32,051 nt of DNA from the NCBI GenBank assembly GCA_011773575.1, contig WVXJ01000137.1, forward strand, positions 1-32,051. The letters run 5' to 3'. Positions 10,181 through 23,329 of the stretch are shown one piece after another (the stretch's first letter is position 1; each line of letters starts with the position of its first letter). A program made the position numbers and the translations under genes. The notes below the pieces were generated by a model. That model had not been told where the DNA came from and did no database searches. It saw only the letters and a program-made list of their open reading frames with translations. This stretch comes from Armatimonadota bacterium (GTDB lineage: Bacteria > Armatimonadota > Hebobacteria > Hebobacterales > WVXJ01).

Positions 10181-10993
10181 CTACGACATAGCTGTCGAGG
10201 CGCGTCGGCTCGCCATATGTCTGCGGCGGCAAGGTGCCCAGAGCAGCCAGACATACAGGGCCTCCGGCAAAGTCGTTTTGACTGATTGTAGCGCAGTCTC
10301 GACGGCCGAAGAAAGGCGCGAGCTCTCTTGTTCGGCGTCCTCCAGCTCGCTACACCGGCGCTCGTACTCCCCCTGCAGATCGCCGACAGTTCGCAGTTGA
10401 CCGCGCTTCTCCGCCAACGCGAGCGCTGCCTCATTCAGCCGCGCCTTGCCCCAAGGTCTGAGAATCCTGGCCTGCGACTTTTCCAGTTCCTCAGCGACCT
10501 TCGCCGGGGACACCGCTGTGCCCAGACCGGCGCCGTATATCCTGTCCGTGATGCCCTCCGCGTCCAGTGTGTCCAGGCCTGCAAGCTCGGCAAGCCCAAA
10601 TGCGAACACACCGCGGCAGACTTCTTCGGGGATGTGTGCCAACAGACCAGAGAGTGCCGCTGCCGGTAGCTCCGCTCCGGCGTCTTCGTAGACTCGCACC
10701 GGGCCGCCCTTGCTGCCCGAGAACCGCTCGACCCATATCCGCCTGTCCGTTCCATCTGATAGCAGCACGCGACTCCCGTGTCGACCACCGGCAAGCGGAG
10801 GATAGCGGTTCTCCTTCTTCCTAGCATCCGGAAACCCATACATTAGTCCGCGGAGAAAGGCGAGTAGGGTCGTCTTCCCGGACTCATTCGGACCTGACAG
10901 GACGACCAGCCCTGAATCGAATTCACCTTGATCAGGGATCTGGCGGCCGTGGAACATGCCGGATCCGTCTATCGCCAGTCTCAGCAGCCTCAA
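10181..10993 (-). pseudogene. YhaN/SbcC-like AAA ATPase, N-terminal ~235 codons only (3'-truncated)
   Basis: The N-terminus is typical for the family: MRLLRLAIDGSGMF...VVLSGPNESGKTTLLAFL (Walker A), followed by the beginning of a coiled coil. The reading frame decays after ...SSAVETALQSV into TLPEALYVWLLWAPCRRRHMASRR and stops at 10181. Family members are ~900-1000 aa and carry the signature motif and Walker B at the C-terminus, and none of that is present here. The start overlaps the upstream nuclease gene by 4 nt. Confidence 0.75.
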
Positions 10994-12353: not shown

Positions 12354-13151
12354 TCATCCTCGCTTCTCCAGCCTCAGCCCCTCCGCCACCTTCGCCAACG
12401 CCTCGTTGATGCGGTTCACCACATCATCCGGCAGATTCGGGTCGTCGACCTCGACCCGAAGGACAAACTTCAGCTCGTGCTCCACGGCGGCGGCAACGAT
12501 GCTCGCGACTTCGTCGGCGAGATTCTGGATCTCGCCGGTTGTTAGTTCGGCTTGGGCTGCATATGCACCCGTTGGTACCTCGACAGGCGGGCCGACGGGA
12601 GGCTTCTCGGTCGGAACCCTCAGATGGATCGTCTGCGCTGCGGACCAATCACAGGGCCAGGGGCCGGAATCTTCAGTGCGCTCTACCATGCGAGTGCGGA
12701 TGGCGCCGTCGATGGCAGCGCACACTGTAGCCCAGGGAAGATTGACACCGGCCTTCGCTGAGAGCGCCGACGCGACAGCGATCCCGGTGGTCGCTCCATC
12801 CTGCCATGCGTCGGGCAGACTCTCCGGCAGAAGATCGATTGGGCTGATGGCCGCTGGCTGCGGCCCGAGAAGCGCCTGTTCAGTAAGGACGCCAGAGGGC
12901 ACGTCGTCCTTGAGGATACTGGCAGGGCCATTGCGCAGCCACAGGTAGCCTTGTGACACAGCAGCGCGGACAGCCCCCTCTACCACGTCTCGGGCAGTCT
13001 TCGGGACGGCTGTCGGCTGTTCATAGCCATTGCGCGGTATTCTGGCCACCTTGGTGCCGTCGAAGTAGGCGAGCATCTGAGCAAATGGGATCGCTTCCGG
13101 CGGGTCGGCCCATAAGTCGGGGAGCACGCCAGGCTGAAGCAGGCCAGGCAA
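12354..13151 (-). CDS. Hypothetical 265-codon ORF without a canonical start. Possibly the 3' remnant of a larger gene.
   Basis: The ORF caller begins it at a TTG directly after an in-frame TAG, with no SD-like element. The first ATG is codon 26. Composition and third-position GC look coding (...YLWLRNGPASILKDDVPSGVL...LPWATVCAAIDGAIRTRMVERTED...ELKFVLRVEVDDPNLPDDVVNRINEALAKV). No family assigned with confidence. Confidence 0.45.
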   Translation of the reverse strand: MPGLLQPGVLPDLWADPPEAIPFAQMLAYFDGTKVARIPRNGYEQPTAVPKTARDVVEGAVRAAVSQGYLWLRNGPASILKDDVPSGVLTEQALLGPQPAAISPIDLLPESLPDAWQDGATTGIAVASALSAKAGVNLPWATVCAAIDGAIRTRMVERTEDSGPWPCDWSAAQTIHLRVPTEKPPVGPPVEVPTGAYAAQAELTTGEIQNLADEVASIVAAAVEHELKFVLRVEVDDPNLPDDVVNRINEALAKVAEGLRLEKRG

Positions 13152-13318
13152 ATCAGACTACCCACAGGGCTGATGTTGTAGCCCCGATAGAGCAGTCCGA
13201 TCAGGGTCGGCTCTCCCGTCGGCCCCTCGAAGGCGATCACCCACCAGGTCAGGACGAAAAGACCCATCCCCCAGATGAGGGCGCAGGTCAGCGCAAAGGC
13301 TCCCGTATTCAGTCTCAT
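12980..13318 (-). CDS. Small membrane protein. The 5' two-thirds look native, and the 3' end is probably disrupted at about 13155.
   Basis: The ATG at 13318 is preceded by AAGGAGGA with a 5-nt spacer. The sequence MRLNTGAFALTCALIWGMGLFVLTWWVIAFEGPTGEPTLIGLLYRGYNISPVGSLI looks like a conserved ~80-aa two-helix membrane family. After ...VGSLICLA the second helix is cut short and the frame reads through Arg/Ser/Pro-rich text that overlaps the 265-codon ORF in another frame. Confidence 0.5.
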   Translation of the reverse strand: MRLNTGAFALTCALIWGMGLFVLTWWVIAFEGPTGEPTLIGLLYRGYNISPVGSLICLACFSLACSPTYGPTRRKRSHLLRCSPTSTAPRWPEYRAMAMNSRQPSRRLPETW

Positions 13319-13358: not shown

Positions 13359-14519
13359 CTACCAGCGGAAGATCGCCGCTATCGGCCCATCGGTTGGCAT
13401 GTCGTTGTCGTCTATCACGAAAACGCGAGCGCCGCTCGTGAATGCGCGAACGGCTGCCAGGTTCAGAAGTTCTTCATCGCCGGGTTGGGGACTGTCATGC
13501 ACTCGCATCTGACGCTTAGCAGAGCCAAATGTGCCCCAGCGTTGCGCTCCCTTCTCGACAAACAGAGTCGCGACGCGGCCATCGGTCGCAGCTCGGATGA
13601 CATCGGCGAGGTTCGTCGAGGCCCGCTCACCTGCTTTGAGCTGCCCGAAATCTTCAATCGCCTGAGTCTGCGCCTGGCGAACGAGCGGCGCGACGATTTC
13701 CCATGCTCGGCCCCTGAGTTCGTCCTCGCTCAGGTCATCAGGATTCGTCTTGACCCCCTCGTCGGTGAGGTTACGATAACTGTTAGCCTCGCGGTAGATG
13801 GGGTGAAGGTACTCGATTCCAGCGAGCACGAGCGGCACCGCCTCATCTCTTACGATGCCCTGGAGGGCTTTGTCGATCTGCCGAAAGTAGCGCAGGATGT
13901 TGGTCTTACGGTCGTCGGTACCGACGCCGTGGCCGTGGAAAACCGCGGTATGCCGGTCCCCGCCCGCGCCTGCACCGCTTGGCACCGTATGGGATTGGAG
14001 CTGCTTTTCCGGTTCATCGAAACGGAGAGCATCTGCCAGGTCCTTGGGCATCTGCTCGACAGGAATCTCGGCGATCTCGTACTGTGTTCCCTGAAAGAGC
14101 CTGGTGCCGCCCAGCCCCAGCGCCAGCACGAAATAGCGACCGTCGTCTGCGATCACAGAAAGAAGCGGAATGAGGTGGAAGCGGCTCTGGACGATCGCGG
14201 ACTCCTCGACAGGTACAGGCAACTGGTAGTATTTGAAGAATCCGGGCGCAGCGAAGAGGGCCATGCCGTTAGCTTGGTTCTGCCAGAGCGTAGGCTCATC
14301 AAGCAGCCCTTGAACAGGTTTCAGGAAATCTCCTCGTTCCTTTGCGGCAATCCCGTGCTCCTCCAGCAGGCTCTCTGCCTCCCGGGCCAGGTTCTTGAGC
14401 CGGGTCATGTTCTGCGAGGTCCCTGCGCCAACGTGGGTCGTGGGGAGGTAGAGCGAAAGACACGGCTTGCCTTCTAGCTCAGCGAGCAGTCTGAGTTCAT
14501 CTCTCGAGGGGAGGCGCAT
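13359..14519 (-). CDS. Bacterial archaeo-eukaryotic release-factor-like (baeRF / eRF1-Pelota-like) family protein
   Basis: The start was moved to the ATG at 14519, preceded by GGAGGG with a 5-nt spacer. The layout matches what I recall for baeRF families: N-terminal ...PCLSLYLPTTHVGAGTSQNMTRLKNL..., central ...RYFVLALGLGGTRLF..., ...PLVLAGIEYLHPIYRE..., and C-terminal ...ATDGRVATLFV...GPIAAIFRW. The assignment is from memory of the family pattern and was not searched. Confidence 0.6.
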   Translation of the reverse strand: MRLPSRDELRLLAELEGKPCLSLYLPTTHVGAGTSQNMTRLKNLAREAESLLEEHGIAAKERGDFLKPVQGLLDEPTLWQNQANGMALFAAPGFFKYYQLPVPVEESAIVQSRFHLIPLLSVIADDGRYFVLALGLGGTRLFQGTQYEIAEIPVEQMPKDLADALRFDEPEKQLQSHTVPSGAGAGGDRHTAVFHGHGVGTDDRKTNILRYFRQIDKALQGIVRDEAVPLVLAGIEYLHPIYREANSYRNLTDEGVKTNPDDLSEDELRGRAWEIVAPLVRQAQTQAIEDFGQLKAGERASTNLADVIRAATDGRVATLFVEKGAQRWGTFGSAKRQMRVHDSPQPGDEELLNLAAVRAFTSGARVFVIDDNDMPTDGPIAAIFRW

Positions 14520-14566
14520 TGCAGCCCTCCTGCGGATCATACTTCACCGCGCCGATCCGGTGGACA

Positions 14567-15304
14567 TCACTCCCGCCAGTACCTCGGCCGACCGTAGTAA
14601 TCATAGAGACGCATCTCATACTCGCGGTTGACAGGGGATGAGGGATCGTACTCGGGGCTTCCCTCAATCACCGCTGGGTCGAGATCTGTCTGCATCTGGC
14701 GATCGTGCCAGTTGATATGCGTGATCCAGCCTGGCGAGACGAGTACCTTCCTGCCGGCAAGCCAGGAGCCGATGTCAGCTACAAGGTAACGAATGGTCCA
14801 GTCATCGGTGTCGGCGATGACGTCGTCGACCTTCCCGATCTCTCGGCTTGCAGCGCGGATGCGATAGCCGATGACCTCGTTGACACTCCGCAGGTGCGGA
14901 TCGCCGCGGTCTTCCTTTTTCTCCTTCGCCGTCTCCGCGCTTCGCACGGGAACAGCCACAGGCGCACCCATACCGGCGACCGGCCAGTATGGGGCCCAGC
15001 GGTAGTAGTCTGCGAGGGCCGCTTCTTGCTGACGGCTGACAGGGCGATCAGTGCCAACGGTAGGGCTCTTCTCAATCTGCTCAGAGGAGAGTGACAAGGG
15101 TAGCCTCTGAGCCGACCACTCTGGCTCGCCCATGGACTCAGGGGATATCAGAACCTGTCGGCCTGACAGCCACCCGCCGGTGTCAACGACGAGATACCGT
15201 ACAACCAAAGCAGCGTCATCGAAATAGAAGTCCGCAACCTTGCCGATATCCCTGTCCGTCGCACTGATCTTGTAGCCTACTACCTCGTTCAGGCTCCTGA
15301 TCAT
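14567..15304 (-). CDS. Tandem PRC-barrel domain protein
   Basis: The ATG at 15304 is preceded by AAAGGAGGA. There are two repeats of the PRC-barrel signature (VVGYKISATDRDIGKVADFYFDD...VRYLVVDTGGWLSGRQVLISP and VIGYRIRAASREIGKVDDVIADTDDWTIRYLVADIGSWLAGRKVLVSP). They are joined by an Ala/Pro/Lys/Glu-rich linker. Confidence 0.85.
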   Translation of the reverse strand: MIRSLNEVVGYKISATDRDIGKVADFYFDDAALVVRYLVVDTGGWLSGRQVLISPESMGEPEWSAQRLPLSLSSEQIEKSPTVGTDRPVSRQQEAALADYYRWAPYWPVAGMGAPVAVPVRSAETAKEKKEDRGDPHLRSVNEVIGYRIRAASREIGKVDDVIADTDDWTIRYLVADIGSWLAGRKVLVSPGWITHINWHDRQMQTDLDPAVIEGSPEYDPSSPVNREYEMRLYDYYGRPRYWRE

Positions 15305-16135
15305 TTCGTTTCCTCCTTTGCCGACTCACTTGTCGGATTCGCATGTGGCCTTCGAAATAGCACGTCTCCTTCGCTGGAAACAGCGATCCACTTGCTCCTG
15401 CCAGCTCAACAGTGCTTCCTCCCAGGAACCACGTACCGGGACCAGGCACCTAACCTCCTCTTGCGATTCCCCATTCTGGGATCCACCGCACGCTGCTCTT
15501 GGCTCTTCCGTGCTCTCCTTTGCTTTGTCGCCGTTCTCACTTTGCTCCGTTCCCTTCGTGGCAGCATCTCCCCCTGCCTTGCGGCGGGCAGTAGAGAGCG
15601 CAGCTGACGCGGTTACTCAAACTACGCAATGCCGAGGCATCGAGTTCCTGCACCCCCGCCTCGATGGCTATCCCGGGCCGGTTCAGGGTTCGGGAAGTTG
15701 CAGACATGTGTACAATACTGCGAGCATCCACGCGGCCTTAAGTGCGGCCACTGGTTGCTTTGATCGTCACCCCTCGCCACTGCCTTGCTTAAGAGTAGCT
15801 TGGCCGAGATTCACACGAACCCCTCTACAGCAATGTCCAGAAATGGCACACGCGGTTTGGCTCGCCGAAGGACTTGATGTGAGCTCAGAAGAACCATTTC
15901 CTTGAGGAGGCCTGGCAGAGCGATGTCGAGTCGACCCTCGACACCGCAGTTACAGTCGCAGAGCCTATTCGGAAGTCCGCTCTGAACTCTGGCTGCGTGC
16001 CGCCGCGGAACGCACCGGCAATATCCCTGCGGCTTCCCGACTGCCTGTGAGCAGCCACAGGAGCTAGCCTGCATGACAGGAAACCTCTTGGCTATAGACG
16101 ACAACTGGCGAGAGCACACGGGAGGAGCAAAGCCC

Positions 16136-16351
16136 ATGTCCGACAGTGTCTACAAGGTGATCGAGCTGATAGGAACCAGCGAGAACTCGTGGGAAGAAGC
16201 GGCCCGCAACGCGATTGCGACTGCGTCGAAGACCCTGAAAGAGCTACGGGTCGCTGAGGTCGTTTCTCTCGATATGCAGCTGGATGACGGCAAGGTTGTG
16301 CGCTATCGCGCCAAGATCAAGGTTTCCTTCAAGTACCTCGAGAAGGAATGA
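16136..16351 (+). CDS. Dodecin family (flavin-binding) protein
   Basis: The start was moved to the ATG at 16136, preceded by GGGAGGAG. The sequence MSDSVYKVIELIGTSENSWEEAARNAIATASKTLKELRVAEVVSLDMQLDDGKVVRYRAKIKVSFKYLE matches the ~70-aa dodecin pattern (YKViEivGtS...W..A...a...A.kt...l....V......v..g.v..y...v.v.F). Confidence 0.85.
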   Translation: MSDSVYKVIELIGTSENSWEEAARNAIATASKTLKELRVAEVVSLDMQLDDGKVVRYRAKIKVSFKYLEKE

Positions 16352-20602: not shown

Positions 20603-23329
20603 TCACTGCGACAATTGAGCGGACCGTCGAGCTAGGACGAGCTTGCCGACCTGCCCACCGATCAGTGGCAGCGCGCTCATCCCCAGAATCACCGACCATC
20701 CCGCCGCGTCGGGCGGGACGACCTTCAGCACGTGAGCCAGGAACGGGATGTACAGCGCTCCAAGAAGAAGCACAAGGCAGAGGCTTAGAGCGCCCCACAC
20801 ATAGGTGTTGGAAACGACGTCATTGCGAAGTATGCCAGACGCGGCGTCGCGCATGTTGAAGACGTGCCAGAGCTGGGCGAAGGCGAGAGTCAGGAAAGAA
20901 ACGGTTACCGCTCTGGGTGTATCTATGTGGAGCCAGAGCAGGGAGAGCGCCAGCGCCCCCAATACTGCGGCCGCGATCCCGGCTCCGTAGCCGCCGACTC
21001 CTTTCCAGTGGCGTGAGGTGAGGATCGGTTCGCGCGGGTCGCGCGGCGGATGATCCATGATGGCCGGCTCTCCTTTTCCCATGCCCAATGCGAGAGCAGG
21101 AAACACATCGGTCACCAGATTCAGGAACAGGATTTGCAGGGGCAGAATGGGCAAAGGCGCGTTGACGATGGAAGCAAGGCCGACAATCATCACCTCTGCG
21201 ACATTGCACGACAGCAGGTAGAACACGAATCTGCGGAGGTTGCGGAAGATGACTCGACCCTGTTCAACGGCGTGGACAATGGTGGCGAAGGCATCGTCGA
21301 GCAGGACCATGTCCGAGGCCTCGCGTGCTACCTGGGTGCCGCGCCGGCCCATGGCAATACCGATGTCCGCTTTCTTGAGCGCGGGAGCATCGTTCACGCC
21401 GTCGCCAGTCATCGCCACAATGGCATGGTTGCTCTGATACAGGTCAACCAGATGAAGTTTCTGTTCGGGGCTTACGCGGGCGAAGATGCGGGCCTCCGTG
21501 AAACGGCGGCGCTCCTCCTCGGATAGCTCCTCTACGGGCCGGATCTCGTCTCCCATGATCACATCCGCGTCGCCCTCGTCCCGCAGACCTAAGCTGTGGG
21601 CGACGTTACGGGCGGTGGCCGCTTGATCGCCGGTCACCATGACGATCCGGATACCGGCAGACTGCGCAGCACCAATCGGCCTTCGCACTTCCTCGCGCGC
21701 CGGGTCGCGCAGTCCCACGAGACCCACGAAGAGCAGGTCGCGATAGGGTTCGTCCTCGGGCGACTGCACGGTCTTCTCGGCCAGCGCCAGCACCCGCAGG
21801 CCGTCCTCGGCAAGATCTTTGTTGCGGCCGAGCCATCGCTCACGGTCGAAGTCGTTGTCGCCCTGGCTGCCAGCGGCATTGGAGCAGACCTCCAGCACGG
21901 CTTCGGGCGCGCCCTTGACAGCTACCCGGTAACCTCCTTCACTCTCATGGGCGGTAGCCATCATCTTCAGGTCAGGGTCGAACGCGTGCTCCTTGGCTTC
22001 GGACATTTCCTCCACCACATTGGGTCTCCGCAGGCCCGCCTTCTCACCTGCGACAAGCAGCGCCACCTCCATGGGATCGCCCACGGCCCTGTCTTCATCC
22101 TTCTCCGCATCCAGGTCTAGAGATGCGCCATTGCAGAGCACGCCGATCTCGAGGGCGCTTCGCAGCAGTGGCTCGTCCTCAACATTCACAGCCCGGCCGT
22201 CCCTGTGGAATTTGCCTTGGCGCGCCAGCGCGGCCCCGGTCACTTCCACGTCTCCATCTGGGAGAGCGAACAAGGAGACAGACATTCGGTTCTCGGTGAG
22301 GGTACCGGTCTTGTCGGTGCAGATGATGTTTGTCGCGCCCAGCGTCTCAACCGCGGAGAGACGGTTGATGAGCGCGTTGCGTCGTGCCATCCGCAGCATG
22401 CCGCGGGCGAGGGCTGCGGTAGCGACGATGGGCAGCCCCTCGGGAATGGTCGCCACGGCAAGTGCAATGGCCGTCTCAATAATGAGCAGCAGATCTCTGC
22501 CGCGGAGGAGACCCGCGGTCAACACCAGCGCGGCGATAACAAGCGTCACCCAGACCAGCCTCTGTCCCAGTTGATCGAGCCGCCTCTCCAGCGGGGTCGC
22601 CTGCTCGTGCGTCTCCTCCGCTAGGGTGGCCACGCGGCCCAATTCGGTGTTAACCCCGACTGCGACGACCACAGCCTCGCCTGTCCCTTGCGTAATGGCT
22701 GTGCCCTTGAAGGCCATGTTCGAGCGCTCAGCCAGGGGAGTACCTTCGGCGATATCTTCGACCTGCTTGGTAACCGGCACAGACTCTCCGGTGAGGGTGG
22801 ACTCGTCAAGCTGAAGGTTCGAAGCTTCAACCAGGCGCAAGTCTGCTGCGATCACGTCCCCGGCTTCCAGGATGGCGATGTCCCCAGGAACCAGGGCCCA
22901 TGCAGGCACGACGCGGACGGCGCCATTTCGGCGCACGGTGGCGGACTGGCGCCCGAGCCGTCGAAGCGCCTCCATGGACCGGGCGGCGCGTATCTCCGTG
23001 GCAAAGCCGATGGCCGCGTTGATCACGACTACCGCGGCGATGGCAATGCCGTCCACCCATTCCCCAAAGGCGAAGGCCACCAGCGCGGCCGCCACCAGAA
23101 GCAGAACCACCAGGCTCCTGAACTGATTCAGCAGAACCGCCCAGACGCTCATACGCCTGGCCTCGGGCAGGGCATTGACGCCGTGTCGGCGTCGCCTTCG
23201 CCTCACCTCATTGGCCGTGAGCCCGGTCTCGGGGGAAACGCCAATATCTTCCAGGACTTTGCCGGCGGCCTGCGCCCACGGCTTCATCGGCAAGCTTGCG
23301 GTCTGATGTTGGGGATCGGTCTTGGTCAT
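20603..23329 (-). CDS. P2-type cation-transporting P-type ATPase (Ca2+/Na+/Mg2+ class; specificity not determinable)
   Basis: Motifs: ICTDKTGTLTEN (phospho-Asp), TGESVPV, IPEGLPIVAT (TM4), MVTGDQ, MTGDGVNDAPALKKADIGIAMG, and LFLNLVTDVFPALALG (TM6). 908 aa. It starts 41 nt downstream of atpG on the same strand. Confidence 0.88.
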   Translation of the reverse strand: MTKTDPQHQTASLPMKPWAQAAGKVLEDIGVSPETGLTANEVRRRRRRHGVNALPEARRMSVWAVLLNQFRSLVVLLLVAAALVAFAFGEWVDGIAIAAVVVINAAIGFATEIRAARSMEALRRLGRQSATVRRNGAVRVVPAWALVPGDIAILEAGDVIAADLRLVEASNLQLDESTLTGESVPVTKQVEDIAEGTPLAERSNMAFKGTAITQGTGEAVVVAVGVNTELGRVATLAEETHEQATPLERRLDQLGQRLVWVTLVIAALVLTAGLLRGRDLLLIIETAIALAVATIPEGLPIVATAALARGMLRMARRNALINRLSAVETLGATNIICTDKTGTLTENRMSVSLFALPDGDVEVTGAALARQGKFHRDGRAVNVEDEPLLRSALEIGVLCNGASLDLDAEKDEDRAVGDPMEVALLVAGEKAGLRRPNVVEEMSEAKEHAFDPDLKMMATAHESEGGYRVAVKGAPEAVLEVCSNAAGSQGDNDFDRERWLGRNKDLAEDGLRVLALAEKTVQSPEDEPYRDLLFVGLVGLRDPAREEVRRPIGAAQSAGIRIVMVTGDQAATARNVAHSLGLRDEGDADVIMGDEIRPVEELSEEERRRFTEARIFARVSPEQKLHLVDLYQSNHAIVAMTGDGVNDAPALKKADIGIAMGRRGTQVAREASDMVLLDDAFATIVHAVEQGRVIFRNLRRFVFYLLSCNVAEVMIVGLASIVNAPLPILPLQILFLNLVTDVFPALALGMGKGEPAIMDHPPRDPREPILTSRHWKGVGGYGAGIAAAVLGALALSLLWLHIDTPRAVTVSFLTLAFAQLWHVFNMRDAASGILRNDVVSNTYVWGALSLCLVLLLGALYIPFLAHVLKVVPPDAAGWSVILGMSALPLIGGQVGKLVLARRSAQLSQ

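Follow-up and report, generated by a model that had tools for sequence, protein, structure and literature searches.

A Balon-like protein encoded beside a tandem PRC-barrel gene in an Armatimonadota genome: a probable ribosome hibernation factor in a loose stress-gene neighbourhood

Two neighbouring genes on the minus strand of a 32,051-nucleotide stretch of DNA from an Armatimonadota bacterium (contig WVXJ01000137.1 of assembly GCA_011773575.1; hereafter the window) raise the question of whether a bacterial protein of the aeRF1 superfamily and the tandem PRC-barrel protein encoded upstream of it, designated here PRC2, act together on the ribosome. An earlier note on this DNA had taken the pair for a possible ribosome-directed stress module devoted to rescue, quality control or hibernation. 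Judged from sequence profiles and from a predicted structure, the first of these proteins is a full-length homologue of the ribosome hibernation factor Balon, in a divergent subfamily located outside both of the curated equivalog groups, and will be referred to as the Balon-like protein. The reading favoured here, which we hold to be reasonably probable, is that a Balon-type hibernation factor is co-transcribed with PRC2 and that both genes take part in a reshuffled stress/dormancy neighbourhood, without forming a dedicated two-protein machine.

The Balon-like gene offers two possible starts. A longer reading (13359..14540) begins at ATG 14540 and yields 393 residues, whereas the reading of 386 residues begins at the second ATG, 14519, and is preferred because all of the aligned homologues start there and because a perfect AGGAGG lies six bases 5' of this codon. 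The gap of 26 nucleotides (nt) previously given between the two genes holds for the 393-residue reading only, and amounts to 47 nt with the start at ATG 14519. The protein scores above the cut-offs of five Pfam baeRF models, the strongest being family 3 (157 bits, cut-off of baeRF_family3 31.5 bits) and family 7 (152 bits, cut-off of baeRF_family7 27.2 bits), which bears out the baeRF assignment of the earlier note. It is also recognized, with an E value of 1.2e-36 (127 bits), by the NCBIfam model NF052287, the "AOC03_06830 family ribosome hibernation factor" that corresponds to Balon. A phmmer comparison with the sequences of the PDB retrieved the Balon chain 8rd8_B (E 1.8e-10, residues 16-392 against 5-368), and a profile built from 22 family members aligned with Balon (PDB 8RD8) at E 1.2e-34 over positions 6-384 against 2-369, and with Msmeg1130 at E 1.3e-5. 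The hhalign comparison with Balon returned a probability of 99.6% over 359 columns, at 21% identity. Both the Pfam scores and the Balon profile make the relationship to the eRF1/Pelota/baeRF families a significant one. The AlphaFold2 model of the protein, with a mean predicted local distance difference test score (pLDDT) of 84 and a predicted template modelling score of 0.78, leads to the same group of proteins, the five best Foldseek matches in the PDB being chains of Balon and Msmeg1130 (E 5e-22 to 2.5e-17), followed at rank six by an archaeal aRF1 and at rank seven by Rv2629 (E 1.4e-12), which stands above the remaining aRF1, eRF1 and Pelota structures. The genome, a metagenome-assembled genome of 2.68 Mb and 87% completeness, has only one Balon-like gene; HPF/RaiA is encoded on a different contig, not adjacent to it. 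The uL2 protein of this genome is 68-70% identical to those of its nearest named relatives, which are metagenome-assembled genomes of Limnochordales, Armatimonadota and Bacillota.

Balon was described from Psychrobacter urativorans (AOC03_06830; PDB 8RD8, 8RDV, 8RDW) by Helena-Bueno et al. (Nature 2024; PMC10901736), and structures of Msmeg1130 and Rv2629 are available under PDB codes 8V9J, 8V9K and 8V9L (PMC10901736). According to cryo-electron microscopy, genetics and biochemistry, Balon, Msmeg1130 and Rv2629 occupy the A site of hibernating ribosomes and inhibit translation (PMC10901736), and the Balon of Synechocystis has been observed on hibernating ribosomes (bioRxiv 10.64898/2026.07.03.736309). 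The statement that no baeRF protein had been characterized was thus overtaken in 2024, and again by the Synechocystis preprint of 2026. Since the Balon-like protein is homologous end to end to Balon, which has been solved on ribosomes, hibernation appears as the best-supported reading of its function, and among the three functions previously put forward this is the one that Balon homology upholds. Under starvation or ionic/desiccation stress, the protein would move into the A site of the ribosome independently of any reading of the mRNA, with the N domain touching the decoding centre and the C domain lying at the factor-binding site, possibly together with EF-Tu-GDP, and the ribosomes would be held inactive and protected until growth resumes. 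The gene would be expressed from the same transcript as the upstream PRC2 gene, and both would belong to a loose stress/dormancy neighbourhood, often reshuffled, to which dodecin, P-type cation ATPase, S2P-CBS protease, ferritin-like, BON, Usp, YtxH and Na+/H+ exchanger genes contribute as well; to judge from the comparative counts, it is this common membership that brings the two together.

With respect to its architecture, the Balon-like protein resembles Balon in its three aeRF1-like domains, its alignment from end to end, a long and, by prediction, flexible loop in the middle domain, a stress-gene context and the lack of NIKS and GGQ, neither of these strings occurring in the window's protein. 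Among 120 homologues, NIKS occurs in none and a GGQ string, anywhere in the protein, in 12, whereas FHG[HQ]G is present in 119, within the loop where eRF1 carries its GGQ. Where the earlier note recommended looking for a catalytic loop, the window's protein has no GGQ and carries this conserved motif. The loop extends over residues ~153-201 (about 49 in length), between the three strands of the middle domain (129-152) and the helix 202-223, and AlphaFold2 predicts it as disordered, with pLDDT values below 50 at residues 169-200. The catalytic loop of the aeRF1 superfamily occupies the same place, between the middle-domain strands and the following helix (PMC6514570). The most conserved residues of the family are gathered in this loop (Q175, H177, T178 and the run F194-H-G-H-G-V-G-T-D-D203), those classed as invariant being Q175, T178, F194, H195, G196, H197, G198, G200 and D202, with a replacement of H197 by Q in several homologues. 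Nine of the loop residues (FHGHGVGTD), including invariant His and Gly, form an insertion relative to Balon before the middle-domain helix. The loop sits at a position equivalent to the lasso loop/bL27 trap of Balon, with a sequence unlike that of Balon. In the C domain, the strands 328-332 and 337-341 of the model align with the corresponding Balon segment and may be counterparts of the two-strand insertion through which Balon contacts EF-Tu. The aeRF1 and Pelota (Dom34) proteins share both superfamily and fold with the Balon-like protein (Foldseek E 1e-14 to 1e-4), which differs from them in being bacterial, in lacking NIKS and GGQ, and in that its closest characterized relatives act in hibernation instead of termination or rescue.

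The PRC2 protein is built from two PRC barrels. The Pfam domain PRC (PF05239) matches it over two stretches (E 4.9e-17, 62 bits against a cut-off of 21.2) and is the sole domain found by the Pfam and NCBIfam searches, in which neither the N-terminal domain of RimM nor DUF2382 was detected. The AlphaFold2 model (mean pLDDT 80) consists of two barrels and a disordered linker (residues 110-134), each barrel being followed by a conserved helix/tail of the type PV[SN]R..E..L..YY...YW. The best Foldseek matches in the PDB are the archaeal CdpB1/CdpB2, the H subunits of reaction centres and the stand-alone PRC protein 3htr. In the closest of these, the cell-division proteins CdpB1/CdpB2 (PDB 8QZO), the two barrels of the heterodimer are packed like those of PRC2, although the latter is ~10% identical to them, is bacterial and not archaeal, and has no division genes in its context. 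The PRC domain of RimM docks on uS19, and the occurrence of a PRC barrel in this ribosome maturation factor had been used to connect PRC2 with the ribosome. This argument fails, and a RimM-like PRC2 is ruled out: RimM possesses an N-domain and a single C-terminal barrel whereas PRC2 comprises two barrels only, the structural neighbours of PRC2 are CdpB1/B2 and reaction-centre H subunits, and RimM is missing from its top 50 Foldseek matches. The PRC2 family has at least 8000 members (all but 2 of 8000 scored candidates pass E 1e-8), typically 50-57% identical across phyla, and two other PRC matches occur elsewhere in the genome. Comparative counts, presented below, show PRC2 to be a widespread soluble stress-island protein of unassigned activity.

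In the window, PRC2 and the Balon-like gene are likely co-transcribed, to judge from their 47-nt gap, the Shine-Dalgarno sequence it contains and the lack of any terminator-like hairpin between the two genes in a terminator scan. In an 88%-identical relative the spacer measures 111 nt, with an identical Shine-Dalgarno sequence and start.

How far this pairing extends beyond the window was approached from both genes. On the side of PRC2, three of the eight nearest relatives with usable contigs have a Balon-like gene within ~6 kb. A family-3/7 baeRF gene lies directly upstream of a 73%-identical PRC2 (P0122), in the reverse of the window order; in P0144 the gene order is PRC2, YtxH, response regulator and baeRF; and in P0181 the baeRF gene is found 6.3 kb off, past CBS, SpoIIAA-like, Usp, Na+/H+ exchanger, P-type ATPase and DUF502 genes. 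When metagenomes were scanned with the alignment of PRC2, 80 loci were obtained, one of them the 88%-identical relative, leaving 79 in a sample dominated by one sampling project. A Balon-like gene occurs in the available flank at seven of these 79 loci, six of the seven falling among the ~31 loci whose flank measures 3 kb or more (~20%). Over the ~425 kb of PRC2 flank surveyed, these seven genes compare with ~0.02 expected, a value derived by our own arithmetic from ~0.04 Balon-like genes per Mb in two phylum samples, the relatedness of the sampled loci inflating any formal test. The order PRC2-then-Balon with gaps of ~50 nt is shared by three lineages, namely the window, a metagenome locus (L126) with the order P-type ATPase, PRC2, Balon-like gene and a ~53-nt gap as in the window, and a Spirochaetaceae locus (L052). 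Distances of 0.4-6 kb separate the two genes in L114, L116, L127, L129, L135, L149, L150 and G180. The linked pairs represent separate lineages, since they are mutually only 30-58% (Balon-like) and 32-60% (PRC2) identical. The order and the strand of the two genes vary among the linked loci, and the counts show a linkage that is non-random but loose, with a large excess over expectation. Outside this genome, at least about ten divergent lineages carry a PRC gene close to a Balon-like one, and the adjacency whose lack elsewhere would have told against the earlier note does recur. Of the PRC-barrel/baeRF module it proposed, the recurring proximity stands; the fixed two-gene arrangement does not, most Balon-like and PRC2 genes occurring without each other and in varying order and strand.

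On the side of the Balon-like gene, 80 genome loci encoding homologues of 39-47% identity were considered, the genes of all related loci being simple longest-open-reading-frame calls. A PRC gene lies within 3.5 kb in six of the 80: a tandem PRC gene that immediately precedes the Balon-like gene in the Spirochaetaceae locus mentioned above and lies 3.2 kb upstream in L027, a PRC+DUF2382 gene directly upstream in two Calothrix loci (L024, L026) and 1.7 kb downstream in Fischerella (L008), and a PRC fragment in L025. The PRC+DUF2382 proteins are of the AvaK/YsnF type of PRC-barrel stress/dormancy proteins, AvaK being an akinete, dehydration and stress protein of cyanobacteria (PMC9804601, PMC7660261), and they differ from PRC2 in that the latter has two PRC barrels and no DUF2382. 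Neighbours across 76 of the Balon-centred loci are mixed: among 135 of them, MgtE accounts for 6, Phage_holin_4_2 for 5, Usp, MscS and the Na+/H+ exchanger for 4 each, HPF for 3 and PRC for 2. Around PRC2, too, the neighbours are mixed, as seen at 16 loci of the window's phylum. A fixed conserved operon is ruled out by these low and scattered counts. The 88%-identical relative retains PRC2, the Balon-like gene, the small open reading frame (ORF) downstream of it, dodecin, DUF3096 and phasin. The Balon-like homologues that come after it in similarity (51% and 49% identity) are flanked by other genes, none of them PRC. Of 15 relatives from the same order, one has a Balon-like gene and none has PRC2. 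A sample of 301 genomes from the window's own phylum contains 52 with a Balon-like gene, 37 with a PRC2-like gene and 13 with both, which are close together in the window's genome and in G180 (1.2 kb apart, divergent). The corresponding numbers for 301 genomes of Chloroflexota are 37, 22 and 5, none adjacent, with one weak pair 5.5 kb apart. Besides the window's genome, 17 sampled genomes therefore hold both genes, close in one and at 5.5 kb in the weak case. An essentially lineage-specific adjacency, suggested by the Balon-centred and phylum counts, was abandoned after the PRC2-centred and metagenome counts. As a separate observation, a gene for a 117-residue membrane protein, most likely of the Phage_holin_4_2 family (PF04020), precedes the Balon-like gene on the same strand in heterocystous cyanobacteria (L005, L011, L017, L018, L033; L008, L010 and others), and MgtE often follows the Balon-like gene in those loci.

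Other genes travel with PRC2 too. Within 6 kb, in the same 79 metagenome loci, PAS histidine kinases (a broad cluster) occur at 14 loci, a second PRC2 copy at 11, an S2P/M50-CBS protease at 9, a ferritin-like gene directly upstream with a median gap of 4 nt at 9, BON-domain proteins at 8, FKBP at 8, the Balon-like gene at 7, a P-type cation ATPase at 6 (L126 included) and dodecin at 3. The S2P-CBS, ferritin-like, BON, FKBP and P-type ATPase genes adjoin PRC2 about as often as the Balon-like gene does. Dodecin is found near PRC2 in L109, L127, L155 and L165, the P-type ATPase is also present in L116, and SpoIIAA-like (PF11964), Usp, YflT, YtxH and MarR genes recur in the vicinity. The SpoIIAA-like/STAS protein (PF11964) is encoded a few genes from PRC2 in L109, L111, L112 and L116, often with Usp, CBS or Na+/H+ exchanger genes. 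The ferritin-like gene (Ferritin/Rubrerythrin), on the same strand as PRC2 (e.g., L140:41-697), is coupled to it more tightly than the Balon-like gene is. Known operon neighbours of Balon and baeRF genes comprise RaiA/HPF, Hsp20, OsmC/Y, HdeD, RtcB and EmrB (PMC10901736, PMC6514570). The present subfamily resembles them in its variable, phylum-specific stress neighbourhoods, which include Usp, MscS, the Na+/H+ exchanger and HPF; neither the main texts of these two papers nor the Balon supplements consulted mention PRC-barrel, dodecin, P-type ATPase, S2P-CBS, ferritin-like or BON genes as neighbours.

Three other explanations of the locus deserve to be weighed. The two genes could be unrelated neighbours, juxtaposed by chance in this lineage only, as the scarcity of both genes among relatives of the same order and the different neighbours of the 51%- and 49%-identical homologues might suggest. 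This is contradicted by the excess over expectation along the PRC2 flanks, by the six Balon-centred loci with a PRC gene and by the divergence of the lineages, and we regard it as highly improbable. Conversely, PRC2 could be a true partner, an accessory protein that docks on a ribosomal protein or on the Balon-like protein itself to load, stabilize or release it. The proximity maintained in at least about ten lineages, in which the genes stay near each other in spite of a reshuffled order and strand, the operon-like arrangement common to three of them, and the nature of PRC barrels as protein-binding modules, with CdpB1/B2 heterodimers as top structural matches, all speak in its favour. Such a partnership is nevertheless unlikely in view of the small share of Balon-centred loci with a PRC gene and of well-flanked PRC2 loci with a Balon-like gene, the rarity of closeness among the 17 other genomes holding both, the size of the PRC2 family, far larger than this Balon subfamily, the equal frequency of other stress genes beside PRC2 and the lack of RimM-like features in the latter. 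A third possibility concerns the Balon-like protein, which could be an active A-site factor performing rescue or peptidyl-tRNA release by means of its Q..HT/FHG[HQ]G loop in place of GGQ. The loop lies where the aeRF1 superfamily has its catalytic loop (PMC6514570), and its invariant Q175 and H195-G-H197-G198 (H197 becoming Q in some members) show a conservation that sets them apart from the loops of the widely spread baeRF families, which are described as poorly conserved. An active factor is very unlikely all the same: neither GGQ nor NIKS is present, none of the characterized relatives is catalytic and all of them leave the peptidyl-transferase centre inert (PMC10901736), the loop of ~49 residues is predicted to be disordered like the lasso loop of Balon, and the gene context is one of stress and dormancy instead of RNA repair or rescue.

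The hibernation factor embedded in a stress/dormancy neighbourhood, which we prefer, has to be set against several points that weigh on the other side. The Balon-like protein, ~21% identical to Balon, misses both NCBIfam equivalog cut-offs, with 127 bits against 330 for AOC03_06830 and 16 against 480 for MSMEG_1130. The HP motif in the N domain of Balon contacts A1492/A1913, and when Balon "THREHPANDQDP" is aligned with "TTHVGAGTSQNM" the HP positions are occupied by G-A in the window's protein and are variable in the family; the flanking TH(R) and QDP are kept in the family consensus, of which the window's protein retains only TH and Q (QNM). The near-invariant His-rich loop is not found in the P. 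urativorans Balon, and the contacts at the peptidyl-transferase centre may differ between this subfamily and Balon. The hibernation role assigned to the subfamily is drawn from homology, and a direct functional link would leave the same trace, an adjacency that persists across changes of gene order. A more speculative extension, in which PRC2 would serve as an accessory, for example an adaptor that docks on hibernating ribosomes or binds the Balon-like factor and controls the loading or release of this factor, and the His-rich loop would contribute a contact or an activity of its own at the peptidyl-transferase centre, seems quite doubtful to us.

The features located around the pair are collected in Table 1.

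Table 1. Position and characteristics of the two genes and of the neighbouring features in the window
Feature	Position	Strand	Remarks
Balon-like gene (baeRF family 3/7, three aeRF1-like domains)	13359..14519	minus	386 residues; Pfam, profile, AlphaFold2/Foldseek
PRC2 gene, tandem PRC-barrel protein	14567..15304	minus	245 residues; Pfam, AlphaFold2, Foldseek
Spacer, PRC2 stop to Balon-like start	14520..14566	minus	47 nt; Shine-Dalgarno (AGGAGG) six bases 5' of ATG 14519
Small two-helix membrane protein gene, 3' half disrupted	12980..13318	minus	NCBIfam holin_4 partial match below cut-off
Divergent intergenic region PRC2/dodecin	15305..16072		768 nt, non-coding
Dodecin gene	16073..16351	plus	Pfam Dodecin, E 1e-26
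P-type cation ATPase gene	20603..23329	minus	Pfam; 5.3 kb from PRC2

Downstream of the Balon-like gene, the ORF of a small membrane protein starts at ATG 13318, 40 nt past the stop. Its start was correctly placed in the earlier note, but the gene is not intact: an 81-residue homologue that is intact (P0361, L158:1587-1835, …SPVGSLIGLIWAFADGLIGGAIFAWLYN…) matches it only up to "SPVGSLI", and the window gene is considered disrupted in its 3' half because the similarity ends there. This similarity stops at ~13155, where a start-less ORF of 265 codons begins in another frame, and the contig of a close relative (L083/L117) also ends within the small membrane-protein gene. The break at ~13155 may correspond to a rearrangement or to a strain-variable junction. 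No homologue of the small protein occurs in the 80 Balon-centred loci and a single distant case occurs in the PRC2 loci; this scarcity and the disrupted state of the window copy rule it out as a third conserved member.

The region between PRC2 and the divergent dodecin gene presumably holds the promoters of both transcription units. It is 92% identical to that of the relative, a conservation equal to that of the flanking genes, and shows 1-nt indels, which is why an ORF of 195 codons located in it is considered non-coding. No Rfam family was matched in the region and no sigma-70-like match was found on the relevant strand. A non-coding RNA was rejected in view of the lack of an Rfam match and of a conservation no different from that of the flanking genes. 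According to Pfam, the nearby genes on the plus strand encode dodecin, DUF3096, a phasin-like protein and an ABC1 kinase, in agreement with the dodecin and ABC1 kinase genes announced earlier, and a glucan phosphorylase gene is also present in the window. Farther away, a minus-strand ORF of 270 residues (10181-10993), downstream of a gene for an SbcD-like phosphoesterase, resembles weakly, at its N-terminal end, the PADLOC models of the SMC-like ATPases LmuB, PbeC and DndD (E 1e-6 to 3e-4), as a truncated SbcC/SMC-type ATPase would. No PADLOC model is matched by PRC2, the Balon-like protein, the small ORF or the 265-codon ORF, and a reading in terms of defence or toxin-antitoxin functions was dropped for this reason.

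Balon-type hibernation was discovered only in 2024. To this subject the locus brings three elements, an uncharacterized Balon subfamily (Pfam baeRF family 3/7) marked by a near-invariant loop motif of its own, a measured linkage, of low penetrance but extending across phyla, to a very large family of double PRC-barrel proteins, and a set of stress genes that travel along (dodecin, P-type ATPase, S2P-CBS, ferritin-like, BON, YtxH). If PRC2 does not act on ribosomes, the locus would be an ordinary stress island around a known kind of factor. Should PRC2 act on hibernating ribosomes, the Balon pathway would have its first accessory factor, and thousands of hypothetical proteins annotated as "PRC-barrel domain-containing" would thereby be given a function.

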